This document shows, piece after piece, positions 913 to 28,859 of a stretch of DNA of 28,859 nt. The notes under the pieces were generated by a model. It ran no database searches. It was not told the origin of the DNA and was given only the letters and a program-made list of their open reading frames with translations. Positions within the stretch are counted from its first letter, which is position 1; each line of letters opens with the position of its first letter. The stretch lies in the IMG/VR virus record IMGVR_UViG_3300045988_070385. One strand, written 5' to 3'. The position numbers were made by a program, and so were the translations under genes. Source of the DNA: a virus.

Positions 913-934
913 GCCCCGCCCTTGCGGGCGGGGC
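913..934 (-). repeat. conserved GC hairpin H1 (GCCCCGCCC-GCAA-GGGCGGGGC on the sense strand), copy 1 of 4
   Basis: The 22-nt core is identical to 23110..23131, 26167..26188 and 27246..27267. It forms 9 consecutive G:C pairs with a GNRA-type loop on the minus-strand RNA and has no U tract after it. It lies 11 nt after the stop at 946 and 21 nt before the ATG at 891. Confidence 0.85.
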
Positions 935-945
935 GAGGGCGGTTG

Positions 946-1200
946 TCACCAAGTCTGCGCGAACTGCTCGACCTGCTCGGCCGTGAACGTCCTAGACGGG
1001 TTGTAAAACTCATCGCCCGGCTTGTGGAAGATATATTCGTCATACATTGCGTGGCCTTCATCGTCCACGGCTTGGTCGCGGCTGATAGGCTCGCAGTAGT
1101 GGAGTTCATAGTTGAGGCCGTCAAGCTTGTAGCCTTCGTTCCCCCAGCAGTGGAGAAGGTCTGCGTAGCTGTCTGTCCTGGTGAAGCTGTTGCTGGTCAT
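946..1200 (-). CDS. cassette small ORF 1, acidic 84-aa hypothetical protein
   Basis: The ATG directly follows promoter/UTR module A (AAAGGACAACAAAATG). The ORF is followed by hairpin H1. Confidence 0.6.
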   Translation of the reverse strand: MTSNSFTRTDSYADLLHCWGNEGYKLDGLNYELHYCEPISRDQAVDDEGHAMYDEYIFHKPGDEFYNPSRTFTAEQVEQFAQTW

Positions 1201-4645: not shown

Positions 4646-4730
4646 GGAACGTTGCGCGAGCGGTTTAAGCGGCCACCCTGCTAAGGTGGTAACTGGCAAC
4701 GGTTCGGGGGTTCGAATCCCTCACGTTCCG
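4646..4730 (+). tRNA. tRNA-Ser (anticodon GCT), class II with long variable arm
   Basis: Manual cloverleaf. Acceptor GGAACGT/ACGTTCC; anticodon stem CCACC/GGTGG with loop CTGCTAA; 16-nt variable arm (ACTG-gcaa-CGGT); T arm GGGGG-TTCGAAT-CCCTC; discriminator G. No CCA is encoded. Confidence 0.85.
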
Positions 4731-4915
4731 CAATCCTAACGTTAACCTAGGATAAGCGTTAGGCGGTTGAGTACACTACTCTTGCAGTGACTCAGACGCA
4801 ATATAAAAGGGCGGCTAGTGGGCACGGTCGATAGTGAGGTAACATGTGCTCTCCGGCCAACGGTTGGCGGTCGATAGGATGGCGGCGGTAAGCGCCAATA
4901 TCCAAGCTGACCAAT

Positions 4916-4987
4916 TTTCCCGTGGTGTAATGGGTAGCACGGCAGTCTTTGGAACTGTTTGTTTTGGTTCGAGTCCAGACGGGAGAG
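4916..4987 (+). tRNA. tRNA-Gln (anticodon TTG)
   Basis: Manual cloverleaf. Acceptor TTTCCCG/CGGGAGA (U1:A72, G73, as in bacterial tRNA-Gln); D arm GTGT-AATGGGTA-GCAC; anticodon stem GCAGT/ACTGT with loop CTTTGGA; T arm TTTGG-TTCGAGT-CCAGA. Confidence 0.8.
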
Positions 4988-5041
4988 CGAGACGCGGTAG
5001 AGGTCAGGTGTCTGCCGCGTGCCATCTGCCTAGTAGGTGGA

Positions 5042-5115
5042 AGGGCTGTAGTTCAGTGGTTAGAACGGCTAGCTTCGGTTAGTGTATGTCGCGGGTTCAA
5101 ATCCCGTCAGCCCCC
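5042..5115 (+). tRNA. tRNA-like gene with an aberrant anticodon arm (cUUCGg hairpin in place of a 7-nt loop); pseudo-tRNA or decoy candidate
   Basis: The D arm (GTTC-AGTGGTTA-GAAC) and T arm (GCGGG-TTCAAAT-CCCGT) are canonical. The acceptor AGGGCTG/CAGCCCC has an A1:C72 mismatch. The anticodon arm is 16 nt, not 17, and folds best as GCTAGC-TTCG-GTTAGT. The variable region is 7 nt. Confidence 0.55.
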
Positions 5116-22341: not shown

Positions 22342-22383
22342 AAGCCGCACGGTTTCCTTTCACCGTGCGGCTTCTCCTTTTTT
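22342..22383 (+). terminator. Rho-independent terminator at the convergence point of the two arms
   Basis: AAGCCGCACGG-10 nt-CCGTGCGGCTT followed by CTCCTTTTTT. Confidence 0.7.
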
Positions 22384-23087: not shown

Positions 23088-23109
23088 GTTTTATTCCTTT
23101 CAGTTGGGT

Positions 23110-23131
23110 GCCCCGCCCTTGCGGGCGGGGC
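23110..23131 (-). repeat. conserved GC hairpin H4, copy 4 of 4
   Basis: The same 22-nt core as H1-H3. It lies 8 nt after the stop at 23140 and 22 nt before the ATG at 23087. Confidence 0.85.
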
Positions 23132-23139
23132 GGGTGGTG

Positions 23140-23376
23140 TCAGTCGCAGAGTTCTTCAATCTGTGCTTTATATGTGGTGTCATAGCTGGTTTCATGGAAC
23201 TTGTTGACACGTCCGAACGTGAAACCGTATTTGCGTTCACATTTGCGACGGATTGAACGGAGAATGTTCTTTGTTTCCACCGCTTCACTGTAGAACGTGT
23301 AGAAGGCGTCAAGTTCCGGGATGTCGATGGTTTGTTTTCCGTCGAAGTAGTTGATGTTGATTGTTGCGGTGGTCAT
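23140..23376 (-). CDS. cassette small ORF 4, 78-aa hypothetical protein
   Basis: The ATG directly follows promoter/UTR module D, and the ORF is followed by hairpin H4. Confidence 0.6.
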   Translation of the reverse strand: MTTATININYFDGKQTIDIPELDAFYTFYSEAVETKNILRSIRRKCERKYGFTFGRVNKFHETSYDTTYKAQIEELCD

Positions 23377-24255: not shown

Positions 24256-24299
24256 AAAATAAAAAAAGGGAACCAACGAAATTCATTCGTAGATTCCCC
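24256..24299 (-). terminator. Rho-independent terminator (minus strand)
   Basis: Minus strand reads GGGGAATCTACGAATGAATTTCGTTGGTTCCC (GGGAA/TTCCC and ACGAA/TTCGT pairings) followed by TTTTTTTATTTT. It starts 6 nt after the stop at 24305. Confidence 0.7.
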
Positions 24300-24304
24300 T
24301 TTTA

Positions 24305-24586
24305 TCAGCGAGAGCAATACGCTAAGCACTGCACCTCAAGCTCATCCACATAACGATAACACACACCGTCAAACACGAAAAAAGGCGCGCTAGAATACTT
24401 GTGAGCCTTGCGCAGTGTCCAATATCGGCTATTGCCCGGCTGGACGACCATTAGAGCAAGCATCACGCCGGTTTTCTTTTTGATTCGCACCGTCATTTTC
24501 CGTAGTTCGTCAATCAACTCACGGTGTTTGCATCCCGCGCAATCATCAAACACCGCGTAGATCACACGTCGTGAAATGCTCACCAC
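24305..24586 (-). CDS. thioredoxin/glutaredoxin-fold protein (CAGC redox motif)
   Basis: VIYAVFDDCAGCKH (CxxC after a beta-strand) and a later PFFVFDG motif, as in NrdH/glutaredoxin-like proteins. The GTG start overlaps the upstream stop, and a GGAGGTG SD is present. Confidence 0.45.
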   Translation of the reverse strand: MVSISRRVIYAVFDDCAGCKHRELIDELRKMTVRIKKKTGVMLALMVVQPGNSRYWTLRKAHKYSSAPFFVFDGVCYRYVDELEVQCLAYCSR

Positions 24587-25467
24587 TCAACACCTCCCAG
24601 TTTTTGCAGTTCGTCAATGAGATGCAACGTCTGCAATTCTTTTGTCTCCTGTGCTTCGATTTCACTTGCAACACTCCGCCGCTCTACCGCGAACACCTCA
24701 TGTTGCAAACTGCCATAAACCCGGTCGTCAAACATGATGAAGAAAACCGTCTGCAAGTCTGGGTTGACGACGAAATACTGTAACACTTGCGTCTGATACT
24801 GCTCTGGGATGAAGTCGAACTCTCGACGCGGTTCAAGAACCTCCGGGAACAGTTTGAGAGACAACGAATACAATTCGGCTCGTTGGTCGTCTGACGTTTC
24901 CGAATCGTTGAGCATCTGGAACACGCGGAACGGAATTACCGTCTGCAAATGGTATTTCGTGCCCAGGCTTTTCGCTTCGAACGCGAACGTTGGCGGGTAT
25001 GGGATGCCGTTAATGTCGATTTGCGGCTTGGCGTAAGCGTCGGGGCTGACCGCAATTCGGTCATCCGCATTGCTCACCCACATTCCGGCATCGAACTCGA
25101 CAATTTCGGGGGAAATGTCAAGTTTATCGCACGCCATCATGATATTGGTGTTTTCCAATCGGTGGCCGCGTTCCATTGGCGGTTCCCCGTCCGGCTGTTC
25201 CGCAATCATATCGGCAAGCAACTGCCAGAAATCGAGGTTGACTTTCAACCGTTCGTTATCTCGTTTGGCTTGTTCGGCTTTCTCTCTGTATTCTTCGGCC
25301 TTTTCTTCGGTCTTTGCTTTGTCTGCCATGGCTTCGAGCTTGGATACGTCCTTTTGGGCGTAATGTTCGAGGGAGAGTGTTCCGGCTTTGGTGCCAGTGA
25401 TTTTGCCTATTCGCGCGTCTAACCATGCTTGCGTATCCTGTGCTTGGGAAACGTTTAAAATCTTCAT
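24580..25467 (-). CDS. YqaJ-type (lambda Exo-like, PD-(D/E)XK) recombination exonuclease
   Basis: N-terminal W.DARIGKITGTKAG motif, then GHRLEN, VSPDAY and FEAK catalytic-type motifs. SD AAGGAAGGAAAA. Contains a Lys/Glu-rich insertion (KLEAMADKAKTEEKAEEYREKAEQAKRDNERLK). Confidence 0.75.
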   Translation of the reverse strand: MKILNVSQAQDTQAWLDARIGKITGTKAGTLSLEHYAQKDVSKLEAMADKAKTEEKAEEYREKAEQAKRDNERLKVNLDFWQLLADMIAEQPDGEPPMERGHRLENTNIMMACDKLDISPEIVEFDAGMWVSNADDRIAVSPDAYAKPQIDINGIPYPPTFAFEAKSLGTKYHLQTVIPFRVFQMLNDSETSDDQRAELYSLSLKLFPEVLEPRREFDFIPEQYQTQVLQYFVVNPDLQTVFFIMFDDRVYGSLQHEVFAVERRSVASEIEAQETKELQTLHLIDELQKLGGVEW

Positions 25468-25468
25468 T

Positions 25469-25876
25469 TTAGTTTTCCTTCCTTACCGGTAATCCGTCTT
25501 CCGTGGTGGCGAGCATGTATGCTTTCAGCAGTGTGTCCGCTATTTTTTGACGTCGTGCGGGGGGAATACGCCGGAACTTGGTTTCCCAATGCGCGACCTG
25601 ACATTGCCGTACCCCGTACATTTGCGCCATTTCCCTTTGGCTGATACCGAACACGTTGCGTAGATATTTCAACCGTTCGCTATCGTCCAATGAGTCAAGA
25701 TACGTATTCCGATTGTTGACGGTACGCAGGTTATTCTCATGGTCGATGGTGAATAGGTTGCCGTTTTTTGACTGGATCAATTGCGCGTAAATGTCTTCTT
25801 TAATCCTGTATTCTCTGTCCCCGGCGACGGTTTTGAACGTGATGGGCATGGCACCCGGCCATAGCGTGAGTCTCAT
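25469..25876 (-). CDS. XRE-family HTH protein (HTH in the C-terminal half)
   Basis: LRNVFGISQREMAQMYGVRQCQVAHWETKFRRIP matches the Cro/C1-type HTH pattern. AAGAGGA SD and ATGA overlap with the upstream gene. Confidence 0.65.
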   Translation of the reverse strand: MRLTLWPGAMPITFKTVAGDREYRIKEDIYAQLIQSKNGNLFTIDHENNLRTVNNRNTYLDSLDDSERLKYLRNVFGISQREMAQMYGVRQCQVAHWETKFRRIPPARRQKIADTLLKAYMLATTEDGLPVRKEN

Positions 25877-26145: not shown

Positions 26146-26166
26146 TATTATTCCTTTTCGGTGGGG

Positions 26167-26188
26167 GCCCCGCCCTTGCGGGCGGGGC
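26167..26188 (-). repeat. conserved GC hairpin H3, copy 3 of 4
   Basis: The same 22-nt core as the other copies. It lies 7 nt after the stop at 26196 and 21 nt before the ATG at 26145. Confidence 0.85.
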
Positions 26189-26195
26189 GGGGGGG

Positions 26196-26399
26196 TTATT
26201 CTCCAACGATTTCCGCGAACTTGCCGGTGAGCCACTTGAGATATTCTTTTCTGGTGGCGAATTTGCCGTACGCGTGTGGTGTCTCGCAGTATTCGCCTGT
26301 TGCGTTCTCATTCCACCATGTTTCGACGTCTACCGTGCCGTCCTCGTTGGTGGTGGCCTTGATGTTGTATCCCTTGAAGCAATTGGTTTCGGTGGTCAT
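26196..26399 (-). CDS. cassette small ORF 3, 67-aa hypothetical protein
   Basis: The ATG directly follows module C, and the ORF is followed by hairpin H3. Confidence 0.6.
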   Translation of the reverse strand: MTTETNCFKGYNIKATTNEDGTVDVETWWNENATGEYCETPHAYGKFATRKEYLKWLTGKFAEIVGE

Positions 26400-26463: not shown

Positions 26464-26631
26464 CTAGACCCAAGACATGACAATAAACCCCATTCCAGCA
26501 AGACCGATAAGGAGAGTAGTCAATGTGAGAAGGACCATAAAATTATCCTCCCACTGAAATGCAATCCACAAAGCGACAGCGGAAACAATCGTAAGCTCCA
26601 AGAAACCGACGAATATGGCAATCCTTTTCAC
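26464..26631 (-). CDS. small two-span membrane protein, 55 aa
   Basis: Translated by eye: VKRIAIFVGFLELTIVSAVALWIAFQWEDNFMVLLTLTTLLIGLAGMGFIVMSWV. The GTG start overlaps the ERF stop (GTGA). Confidence 0.4.
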   Translation of the reverse strand: MKRIAIFVGFLELTIVSAVALWIAFQWEDNFMVLLTLTTLLIGLAGMGFIVMSWV

Positions 26632-27224
26632 TTGGCACCACCCTTGCTGATGGCTTCGCGCAAGAGTCTCACGTCATGCTCCGTCAAGTCCTGCGGCCTA
26701 CGCACCTGATGACCGAATTGATCACTCAACGCGTTGACGTAAAAACCGAGATTCGTTCCAGCCGCCTGCGCCAATTGGTTAAGCTCGTTGACTTCCTGTG
26801 CGGTGGCCTTGTGTTCCTGTGGAGTGGCGGAATAGTCGCGCATTGCCGCCCCGTCATCATCCTTGTCCGGGAAAATACCAAGAACAGCATAGAGCGAATA
26901 GCGTCGAGCGTAAGTGACTGCGGAGCCGTTGGCTTGAGGGTCAGGCACGATCAAGAACGGGTACGAGCCAACCGTAATGTTTTCATCTTCGTCGAAAATG
27001 ATTGTTTCAACCTGCCCGTACGACGTGTTTCCAGCCGATACAGCCCAGCGGACTTCTTGCCTGAACGCGCAACCATTTTGTGCGAAAATCGGTTTAATTG
27101 TTTTGAGGATGGTTGCTAAGTTCAAATACTGGTATGTGCGTTTCCCTGCATTGGCAGTGAGGTCGGTCACGAAGTTGGGGACTTCGTTCAGGACTTTCAT
27201 ATATTTTGCGTTTAGGTTGCTCAT
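26628..27224 (-). CDS. ERF-family single-strand annealing protein
   Basis: YQYLNLATILKTIKPIFAQNG ... GSAVTYARRYSLYAVLGIFPDKDDDG is the ERF signature. GAAAGGAA SD before ATG 27224; the ORF-track TTG at 27239 lies inside the SD region. Confidence 0.8.
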   Translation of the reverse strand: MSNLNAKYMKVLNEVPNFVTDLTANAGKRTYQYLNLATILKTIKPIFAQNGCAFRQEVRWAVSAGNTSYGQVETIIFDEDENITVGSYPFLIVPDPQANGSAVTYARRYSLYAVLGIFPDKDDDGAAMRDYSATPQEHKATAQEVNELNQLAQAAGTNLGFYVNALSDQFGHQVRRPQDLTEHDVRLLREAISKGGAK

Positions 27225-27245
27225 TGTGGTTCCTTTCAATTGGGT

Positions 27246-27267
27246 GCCCCGCCCTTGCGGGCGGGGC
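27246..27267 (-). repeat. conserved GC hairpin H2, copy 2 of 4
   Basis: The same 22-nt core as the other copies. It lies 9 nt after the stop at 27277 and 21 nt before the ATG at 27224. Confidence 0.85.
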
Positions 27268-27276
27268 GGGGTGGGT

Positions 27277-27471
27277 TTAGAGTGCGTGTTCCTTGAGTAG
27301 TTCGGTGAACTCGTCGGTGTCTACCTGTTCATAATCGGTGTAGCCGTTCATGTCGCAGATGGTGCGGAGGTCTTTCGCGGCTCCGTAGGTGTCCCAATTA
27401 CCATCATCCTGTCCGCTGTTTTCAAGGTAGCTGATGATGTAGGCTTCTGCTGTACTGAGGTTGATTTCCAT
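27277..27471 (-). CDS. cassette small ORF 2, strongly acidic 64-aa protein
   Basis: MEINLSTAEAYIISYLENSGQDDGNWDTYGAAKDLRTICDMNGYTDYEQVDTDEFTELLKEHAL has 15 Asp/Glu against 3 Lys/Arg. The ATG directly follows module B, and the ORF is followed by hairpin H2. Confidence 0.6.
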   Translation of the reverse strand: MEINLSTAEAYIISYLENSGQDDGNWDTYGAAKDLRTICDMNGYTDYEQVDTDEFTELLKEHAL

Positions 27472-27954: not shown

Positions 27955-28364
27955 TTCAATCCATCCTTACATTCCGCTTGCATCATTTTCACGATTCGCA
28001 ACATGTTTTGCAAATCACCTTTACGCAGGTATATCCAGAAAAAGCCTTCACGGTAGGTCACAGCGCGCCTAGCAATATCAAACAGGTTGTCCATGTAGAG
28101 ACAGCACTTCCCCACTTGCATGAGATTGTGCGCGTCCAATGGTTCGCCATCGATTTGCAAGCGGCATTTCTCTCCATTGTCGATAGCCCTCTGTAGATAC
28201 CATTCCGCTTTCTGCAAGTCTTCGAGTGGGCGCCCCTTAAGTCGGTGCCGCCACACGTATTTTATCGCGTTACCTACGCAAAAGCTGTGATATTGCGCGA
28301 CTTCAATGCATTCGCAAGGCTTCGTGTTGTCGGCGTAGTGTGCTGGATGATTGATAGTGTTCAT
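27951..28364 (-). CDS. DUF3310 / SaV-like phage protein
   Basis: The N-terminal INHPAHY...CECIEV...GNAIKYVWRHRLKG...DLQKAEWYL matches the DUF3310 pattern as I recall it. AAGGGAG SD and ATGA overlap with the MTase stop. Confidence 0.55.
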   Translation of the reverse strand: MNTINHPAHYADNTKPCECIEVAQYHSFCVGNAIKYVWRHRLKGRPLEDLQKAEWYLQRAIDNGEKCRLQIDGEPLDAHNLMQVGKCCLYMDNLFDIARRAVTYREGFFWIYLRKGDLQNMLRIVKMMQAECKDGLK

Positions 28365-28852
28365 TTTGCTCCCTTTGATATGGTTTCAATTCTTCTCCCA
28401 AGCCAACGCATAACCGGCACTGCCATGGAATTACCTAACACGCCGATTCGCTCACGGTACCTCAGACAGTCAGTCCATCCAGGCGGGAACCCCTGGAGCG
28501 CTTCGCACTCTTCAGCAGTAAGCCGCCTGAAAGGATACACGCCACCCCAAACGTAGGGCGGGTCATTGCGATTATGGCGAAGCAATGTCGGGCAAGCGTC
28601 GCTCATTGTTGGCGCAGAAGATTGCGTGTCTATGCGGCATTGGACTTTATTACTTCCTGACAAGCGTCCCTCAAGCCTGCTGGCTCGGAGAGCTTCGGCC
28701 TTTTGTCCAGCCTTGCAAGTATCCCCCTGCAAGCTTGCACTGTCATAAAGCACGTTGACGGCACGTCTCCAGTCGTGAGTATTGATGACAAGGAAGATTC
28801 TTTTACGTCGTTGGGGTACTCCGAAGTATTGAGCGTCAAGCACTCGCCATGC
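28361..28852 (-). CDS. DNA (cytosine-5)-methyltransferase, C-terminal segment (motifs VIII-X), continues from 32..475 across the circular junction
   Basis: AWRVLDAQYFGVPQRRKRIFLV (motif VIII), a variable target-recognition region, TAEECEALQGFP (motif IX) and LGNSMAVPVMRWLG (motif X). This frame is +1 relative to the N-terminal segment at the G8 tract (28852..28859, equivalent to 48..55). Confidence 0.85.
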   Translation of the reverse strand, partial: AWRVLDAQYFGVPQRRKRIFLVINTHDWRRAVNVLYDSASLQGDTCKAGQKAEALRASRLEGRLSGSNKVQCRIDTQSSAPTMSDACPTLLRHNRNDPPYVWGGVYPFRRLTAEECEALQGFPPGWTDCLRYRERIGVLGNSMAVPVMRWLGRRIETISKGAK

Positions 28853-28859
28853 CCCCCCC
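28805..28859. repeat. 55-nt terminal overlap, identical to 1..55
   Basis: See the feature at 1..55. Confidence 0.9.

Follow-up and report, generated by a model that had tools for sequence, protein, structure and literature searches.

The analyzed window, a stretch of viral DNA of 28,859 nt (IMG/VR record IMGVR_UViG_3300045988_070385), represents a circularly assembled complete phage genome of ~28.8 kb and of human-gut metagenomic origin, since its bases 1-55 recur at positions 28805-28859. The genome encodes siphovirus-type tail proteins, an endolysin of the Gram-positive type with GH25, CW_7, and LysM domains, and a set of replication and early genes, including a replication initiator, an Erf annealase, a YqaJ/RecE-like exonuclease, an HTH protein, an HNH nuclease, SSB, and RusA. 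The genes for the Erf-family single-strand annealing protein (26628..27224), its likely partner, the YqaJ/RecE-like exonuclease (24580..25467; both on the minus strand), and the HTH protein (25469-25876) lie in the early region; no integrase or other site-specific recombinase was seen in the window. An identical Erf gene is present on a 28.9 kb human-gut metagenome contig, and the phage lineage is common in such metagenomes, with one cluster of a family-specific protein comprising 587 member sequences. The nearest isolated phages are those of Bifidobacterium asteroides (52% identity for the large terminase TerL, ~34% for the endolysin), which points to a Gram-positive, perhaps actinobacterial, host; no repeats of the hairpin type described below were found in these isolated phages.

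Hairpin copies and the repeated early unit

A whole-window scan revealed four exact copies of the 22-mer GCCCCGCCCTTGCGGGCGGGGC: HP1 (27246..27267) between orf64 and the Erf gene, HP2 (26167..26188) between orf67 and a 90-aa ORF (MKDTITL...), HP4 (23110..23131) between orf78 and a 53-aa ORF (MYVVRF...), and HP5 (913..934) between orf84 and a 135-aa ORF (MLTLFN...). All copies are in the sense (minus) orientation relative to the adjoining genes, which are on the minus strand. The window contains no further copies even with up to 3 mismatches, and the number of matches expected by chance is 0 (100 dinucleotide shuffles). The sense RNA, GCCCCGCCC-GCAA-GGGCGGGGC, forms 9 G:C pairs closed by a GCAA loop. 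When folded together with its flanks, every copy retains the 9-bp stem in the centroid structure (~-23.5 kcal/mol), and the start region with the GAAAGGAA Shine-Dalgarno sequence and the ATG is unpaired in the same centroids. The hairpins begin 7-11 nt after the stop codon of the upstream ORF and end 21, 21, 22, and 21 nt before the next ATG. The scan and the folding thus confirm the original prediction of four identical all-G:C hairpins with a GCAA loop at a distance of 21-22 nt from the next start codon.

The flanks of the window copies are C-rich on the 5' side and contain (A/C)CC..GAAAGGAA on the 3' side. The tails immediately following the stem (ACCCAAUUG, CCCCACCGA, ACCCAACUG, and AAUCAACCG) have no U-rich tract of 7-9 nt. 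A search of the window with the Rfam covariance models matched only three tRNAs (E values up to 1), so that the hairpins belong to none of these families, and a literature search for the 22-mer yielded no paper. A G-quadruplex or i-motif formed by the C-run and the 3' arm (plus strand GGGCGGGGCGGGGTGGG) was ruled out, as the C-rich flank is not conserved among relatives. A terminator acting on the plus strand was likewise ruled out, there being no plus-strand T tract and only weak matches inside the palindrome.

The 22-mer had also been suspected to be a REP-like element of the host. A scan of 185,579 species genomes, with one genome per species and therefore possibly lacking the true host of the phage, identified 45 matches, each single-copy in its genome and scattered across taxa, and none of them with the phage flanks. 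A host repeat of the REP/BIME type was rejected on these grounds. In many of the bacterial matches, a T run directly follows the 22-mer, as in ordinary terminators.

The original prediction did not include a key element of the context, namely five near-identical promoter-like elements, with each hairpin placed behind the first ORF downstream of one of them. This second repeat family of the window, further referred to as P, is ~65 nt long, is found on the same strand as the hairpins, and consists of CGGCGTGTCG, ~15 variable nt, and TGTATTATGTAATTACCAAC..GAAAGGAC..ATG, a layout suggestive of a promoter-like element joined to a 5'UTR and a Shine-Dalgarno sequence. The minus-strand copies are P1 (27472..27535), P2 (26400..26463), P3 (24192..24256), P4 (23377..23443), and P5 (1201..1263). 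In four of the five copies, P is followed by a single small ORF of 64-84 aa, the hairpin, and the start region; P3, located directly downstream of a canonical terminator (24256..24299), is the sole copy in the window with neither small ORF nor hairpin. The invariant CGGCGTGTCG occupies the place expected for a -35 element and is unlike TTGACA, and the -10 region is TGTATTATGTAATTA; a factor of the phage or of its host may bind to the upstream block.

The repeated unit is thus ordered as P, one small variable ORF, the hairpin, and a conserved translation-initiation region. The four minus-strand small ORFs, orf64 (27277..27471), orf67 (26196..26399), orf78 (23140..23376), and orf84 (946..1200), match neither Pfam nor PHROG families. 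Their origin as paralogs, with the repeat arising by gene duplication, was ruled out: the ORFs are unrelated, with a 27% identity equal to that of random sequences and no family matches. The translation-initiation region after HP1 (27225..27245) consists of ACCCAATTGAAAGGAACCACA followed by ATG, and equivalent minus-strand regions follow the other hairpins (26146-26166, 23088-23109, and 892-912). This post-hairpin region (ACC..GAAAGGAA..ATG) resembles the 5'UTR that follows P (ACCAAC..GAAAGGAC). Regarding the downstream genes, which had been described as Erf and a methyltransferase operon, Erf is indeed the first gene downstream of HP1, whereas the methyltransferase gene is located two genes downstream of the hairpin at 913.

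Both structures originally described as classical U-tract terminators were re-examined, and one of them holds for the early genes. The terminator at 24256..24299 has a minus-strand stem followed by UUUUUUUAUUUU; it ends the P2 unit directly upstream of P3. The element at 22342-22383 is a 12-bp stem between the convergent late (plus strand) and early (minus strand) gene blocks; the stem is flanked by an A tract at one end and by a T tract at the opposite end. Since the T tract is present on the plus strand only, this element ends the late operon; read on the minus strand, the stem is followed by AUCAAUG, with no U tail.

The hairpin family and mosaic junctions in related phages

Exact matches to the 22-mer were present in 35 stretches of IMG/VR contigs, which are mostly ~30 kb long and originate from one sample series. 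A covariance model built from the hairpin and its flanks identified 91 instances, which were reduced to 79 non-redundant contexts in ~28 related contigs. All 79 are in the sense orientation between a stop codon and an ATG. The distance from the stop codon to the hairpin varies between 5 and 24 nt (mostly 6-14), and that from the hairpin to the ATG is 20-25 nt in 77 contexts. P was found in 81 distinct contexts, and in almost all hairpin copies from the relatives the hairpin is located 250-375 nt downstream of P with one small ORF in between. The family is tight, with 86-92% identity for the exonuclease and at least 62% for homologs of the 135-aa protein (orf135); no more distant relatives with a different hairpin at the equivalent site were found.

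Sequences downstream of the stem are uniformly poor in T: the first 10 nt contain between 0 and 3 T residues in all 79 contexts, with the tail reading ACC(A/C)A... Canonical stems followed by a T tract are located directly upstream of P, in the same direction, in 30 of the 81 P contexts, which places the hairpin inside units bounded by P and a terminator. The proposal that the hairpins form a class distinct from the U-tract terminators was therefore upheld: a T tract accompanies none of the 79 hairpins.

The stem and the loop differ in conservation. Stem variants are mainly single mismatches or U.G wobbles, three stem pairs show compensatory changes from G:C to A:U, and 97% of the alignment cells are paired. 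Only 3 of 500 column shuffles match these pairing and compensation values, although the close relatedness within the family precludes strong covariation statistics. A GCAA loop is present in 63 of the 79 contexts, and the loop is ACGC, GCGU, ACAA, ACAC, AAGC, CCAA, or UUGC in the remaining 16. This pattern supports a helix that is maintained around a loop that is apparently free to vary; a GNRA loop is not required, because the loop varies and even flips among relatives. The wobble variants U.G and C.A are about equally common, wobbles thus being nearly as frequent in the antisense as in the sense reading, and so they are no proof of the sense RNA being the active form. Moreover, arm-to-arm template switching within the palindrome could produce the apparently compensatory changes in the absence of selection.

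The loops GCGU/ACGC and UUGC/GCAA are reverse complements found at equivalent loci, which means that the loop was inverted in place. Such inversions at orthologous sites (GCAA/UUGC and ACGC/GCGU) were observed at L034:5982-6003 and for L029:1428-1449 vs. L006:2556-2577; they are the hallmark of a template switch inside a perfect palindrome. The hairpin also coincides with the ends of several related contigs, which stop at or within it (L028:11603-11668, L030:1-32, and L008:4205-4233), one of them with a fold-back extension TTCCAATTGGGT-hairpin-ACCCAATTGGAA; the repeat or palindrome has probably led to breaks in the assembly or to chimeras at these ends. An unrelated phage on an 81 kb IMG/VR contig (L024:3432-3500) carries the 22-mer and, after a further 22 nt, another hairpin resembling it, GACCCCGCCCGCAATGCGGGCGGGGTC, whose tail is T-rich; this is probably a tandem terminator in an unrelated context.

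Alignment (blastn) of the early region of the window with the relatives demonstrated that blocks of homology begin or end at the hairpins and at P. The segment 26188-24203 of the window aligns to positions 5214-7208 of contig L001, beginning with the first base of the hairpin. The block comprising P1, orf64, and HP1 (27536-27221) is 90% identical to L001 4943-5262, where a different operon follows downstream. In relatives, P, an orf67-like ORF, and the hairpin are found ahead of the gene that follows P3 in the window. Conversely, L111 and L006 have orf135 immediately after the P that succeeds the replication gene, whereas the window contains an additional small ORF and hairpin at this site. 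Since P stays when the small ORF and hairpin are absent, the unit that is gained or lost is the ORF, the hairpin, and the start region, bordered by two similar start regions.

Across the 79 contexts, ~11 families of upstream ORFs occur in many-to-many combinations with ~6 downstream genes. The pairwise identity of the 22-mer is 92-96% irrespective of whether the 100-nt flanks are homologous (~90%) or unrelated (27%). Because each flank travels with its own gene, the sequence shared at a junction is limited to the hairpin, ACC, and the Shine-Dalgarno region, a core of ~22-26 nt. The minimal pairing segment of Red-beta is 23-27 bp, and Rad52-like recombinases recombine short diverged homologies, Erf/Exo pairs performing no worse than Red in this respect (PMC3945230). 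Cassette exchange is best explained by short-homology recombination. The suggested role of the hairpin as a recombination boundary is supported as a fact of genome comparison, the homology blocks breaking exactly at the hairpin, but this is not proof of a selected function.

Candidate functions of the hairpin

Among the roles proposed originally, that of an RNA stabilizer or processing element fits best. In our preferred reading, to which we assign a probability of roughly 40%, the hairpin would act between cistrons as a barrier to RNA decay and as an insulator, so that the mRNA of the promoter-proximal ORF would have a separate fate. An early unit would be composed of P, a small accessory ORF, the hairpin, a standard translation-initiation region, the core genes, and a canonical terminator. 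RNA polymerase is predicted to read through the hairpin because of the missing U tract, and in the resulting transcript the 9-bp G:C stem may block 3'->5' exonucleases entering from the distal part of the mRNA, so that a short RNA of the first ORF, extending from P to the hairpin, would accumulate. The stem may also keep decay or pairing begun in the variable upstream ORF away from the start region of the next gene. Its position is just outside the footprints of both terminating and initiating ribosomes. Such shielding of the start region would also explain why the exchange of cassettes is harmless. As a by-product, the common core of ~22-26 nt, together with the P and start-region sequences, would provide homology for crossovers, by which Erf and the exonuclease, or template switching at the palindrome, might reassort, gain, or lose the cassettes of ORF, hairpin, and start region.

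The location of a stable hairpin with no U tract after the promoter-proximal cistron, inside a longer unit, corresponds to that of an mRNA decay terminator. Protective 3' structures in intergenic regions are known to stabilize the 5'-most gene of an operon, e.g., in malEFG and puf (PMC5927463). On the other hand, a decay barrier does not need a particular stem sequence, yet the paralogous copies are 92% identical. This identity may reflect either common descent with recombination or recognition by a factor. In addition, the presence of the hairpin only after the first cistron is explained by the history of the cassettes and not by the decay model itself. A bolder version, which we consider possible though rather doubtful, regards the entire early region as a gene-cassette system operating with no integrase. 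Here, promoterless cassettes (small ORF, G:C hairpin, and standard start region) would be captured, lost, and reassorted downstream of five standardized promoters via Erf/exonuclease or template switching, and the hairpin would additionally insulate the cassette mRNA from the core genes.

The hairpin could instead stop a fraction of RNA polymerases as an attenuator with no U tract, either alone or together with NusG, NusA, Rho, or a phage factor, so that the first ORF would be expressed as an immediate-early mini-transcript and the distal genes would become delayed-early. This reading fits the placement of the hairpin behind the first ORF of each promoter, with a parallel in lambda, where tR1 and tL1 follow cro and N, and the stem is very stable. 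The host is also probably Gram-positive and possibly actinobacterial, and terminators with no U tail have been proposed in actinobacteria (background in PMC3993855). However, hairpins lacking a U tract cause no termination by mycobacterial RNAP in vitro, even when NusA and NusG are supplied (PMC3993855), and such a tract is missing from each of the 79 copies, whereas the same phages carry canonical stem and U-tract terminators in the same direction. We therefore regard an attenuator as unlikely, and the original suggestion of a U-tract-less terminator isolating each small ORF is weakened by these in vitro data, by the lack of the tract, and by the internal position of the hairpin within terminator-bounded units.

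The sharp homology breaks at the hairpin and P, the many-to-many combinations of upstream and downstream genes, and the presence or absence of the cassette (P3 of the window vs. L001; L111 and L006 at the site between the replication gene and orf135) would also be expected if the primary selected function were that of a recombination linker. In that case, the palindrome, P, and the start region would be kept so that co-infecting relatives can swap promoterless ORF-hairpin cassettes; the phage encodes both Erf and a YqaJ-like exonuclease, and a core of ~26 nt is close to the pairing segment of Red-beta cited above (PMC3945230). We consider such a primary role more doubtful still, since selection acts only weakly on the prospect of future exchange, crossovers would come to fall at any functional element that is conserved, and a perfect all-G:C hairpin kept clear of ribosome footprints suggests structure and not homology alone; moreover, a site-specific recombinase is not seen in the window. 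Recognition of the DNA duplex is a further alternative: a dimeric phage or host protein might occupy the two 9-bp half-sites, leaving the 4-bp center free, and, as at the stoperators of mycobacteriophage L5, prevent elongation from proceeding into the distal genes. This would account for conserved arms around a central 4 bp that varies and even inverts, for the location of the copies in short intergenic gaps downstream of promoters, and for the conservation of one specific stem sequence across paralogous loci, and the early region does encode an HTH protein. But a half-site of 100% G:C in a genome of 50% GC is the outcome expected of selection for hairpin stability, the 22-mer has arisen independently in unrelated bacteria as the stem of terminators, the three symmetrical (compensatory) changes have no rationale in protein binding, and the spacing respects ribosome footprints on both sides. 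With the binding protein itself hypothetical, a roadblock of this kind appears improbable.

The least probable of the considered alternatives, to which we give very little credence, is a nut/boxB-like or put-like RNA site loading an antiterminator onto RNA polymerase, a role suggested originally by the GNRA loop. The GCAA loop of most copies (63/79) and the similar position of lambda nutR after the first gene favor it. Yet the loops at orthologous sites include ACGC, its inverse GCGU, ACAC, AAGC, and the flipped UUGC, and the stem has 9 bp and not 5. There is no boxA-like motif shared upstream, the flanks differing by locus (ACCACCCC, AAACCAAACCACA, ATACTTATACTA, etc.), no Rfam family matches, and most units have no terminator before their end. 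Thus, neither the conserved boxA-like motif nor the short stem with a conserved GNRA-like loop that characterize a lambda-type nut site (boxA and boxB) was found at the hairpin, and the replacement and flipping of loops in relatives disfavors N/boxB-like recognition.

Comparison with known systems and implications

Functionally, the closest systems are the intercistronic protective stem-loops, represented by the malE-malF REP of E. coli and the puf hairpin of Rhodobacter (surveyed in PMC5927463). As in these operons, a G:C-rich hairpin with no U tract follows the promoter-proximal gene of a polycistronic unit, and the 5' segment is expected to be stabilized relative to the distal genes, here as a prediction from the sequence. 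Unlike them, the phage hairpin is a single 22-mer with 4-6 copies per phage genome and is not a host REP; furthermore, it is coupled to a recurring promoter and to a standard start region, and coincides with gene-shuffling junctions.

With respect to the genome pattern, the SAS/ESAS repeats of cluster K mycobacteriophages are the closest, although as an analogy only. SAS is a 13 bp sequence, GGGATAGGAGCCC, located 3-8 bp before the start codon and accompanied in some cases by 17-bp imperfect inverted repeats; the ESAS arms are 17 bp long, imperfect, and separated by spacers of 4-13 nt (PMC3203893), and the function of SAS/ESAS is still unknown (PMC3203893, PMC12699233). Both they and the phage hairpin are repeated elements of the non-structural half of an actinophage-like genome, in one orientation and at a fixed short distance upstream of start codons, and the ESAS inverted repeat is likewise found just upstream of a conserved motif containing a Shine-Dalgarno sequence. 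The differences are that the sequences have no similarity, that the phage motif is GAAAGGAA preceded by 9 perfect G:C pairs with a 4-nt loop, and that the hairpin occurs only in the gap that succeeds the promoter-proximal ORF. The hairpin is accordingly not a member of the SAS/ESAS repeats.

Canonical intrinsic terminators share with the hairpin the same kind of stem-loop, and the identical 22-mer serves with a T tract in many bacteria. The phage copies combine the G:C-rich stem-loop of such terminators with none of their U-rich tracts (0/79), and are intra-operonic, 21-25 nt from the next ATG. Morons of lambdoid phages are units of a promoter, a gene, and a terminator. Similarly to morons, the phage cassettes have a small accessory ORF located between an upstream promoter and a downstream hairpin, and vary in their presence among relatives; unlike morons, the unit that is gained or lost excludes P, which stays when the cassette is absent, and the hairpin lacks the U tract of a factor-independent terminator, so that the cassettes do not qualify as morons. 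An integron gene cassette is a promoterless ORF with an attC hairpin inserted beside the promoter Pc. The phage system resembles it in that a promoterless small ORF and a hairpin-forming repeat are located directly downstream of a resident promoter and in that cassettes reassort, but it has no integrase, no attC architecture, and at most about one cassette per promoter.

The new feature, as compared with these systems, is the coupling of one standard promoter, one hairpin, and one start region into reassorting early-gene cassettes. If the decay-barrier and insulator reading is correct, the phages use a simple, standardized design of early operons, with one type of promoter, one insulating hairpin, and one start region, in which small accessory genes can be swapped with no disturbance to the expression of essential neighbors. 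An RNA-level element would then be linked to the precise breakpoints of phage mosaicism; such a sharp definition of breakpoints is rare. With its 22 nt, the hairpin would also be a compact natural part for insulating operons in Gram-positive or actinobacterial hosts, and would allow the long-standing question of the role of U-tract-less hairpins in such bacteria to be addressed in a concrete case. Should the entire early region function as a cassette system, it would be a plug-and-play array providing for a fast turnover of host-takeover or anti-defense genes in a gut phage lineage.

The gene for the cytosine-5 DNA methyltransferase is split in the window into two ORFs (32-475 and 28361-28843) by a frameshift in a G8 homopolymer of the sense strand (G/C run 47-55 = 28851-28859). 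The relative L111 has G7 at this place and an intact methyltransferase gene of 306 aa, and in several relatives, e.g., L001, the entire gene is missing. The frameshift is due to phase variation or, alternatively, to an error of assembly or sequencing at the point of circularization. Three tRNA genes are located on the plus strand just 5' of the terminase gene (4646-5115); they are Ser(GCT), Gln(TTG), and a third tRNA to which ARAGORN assigns an irregular anticodon loop.
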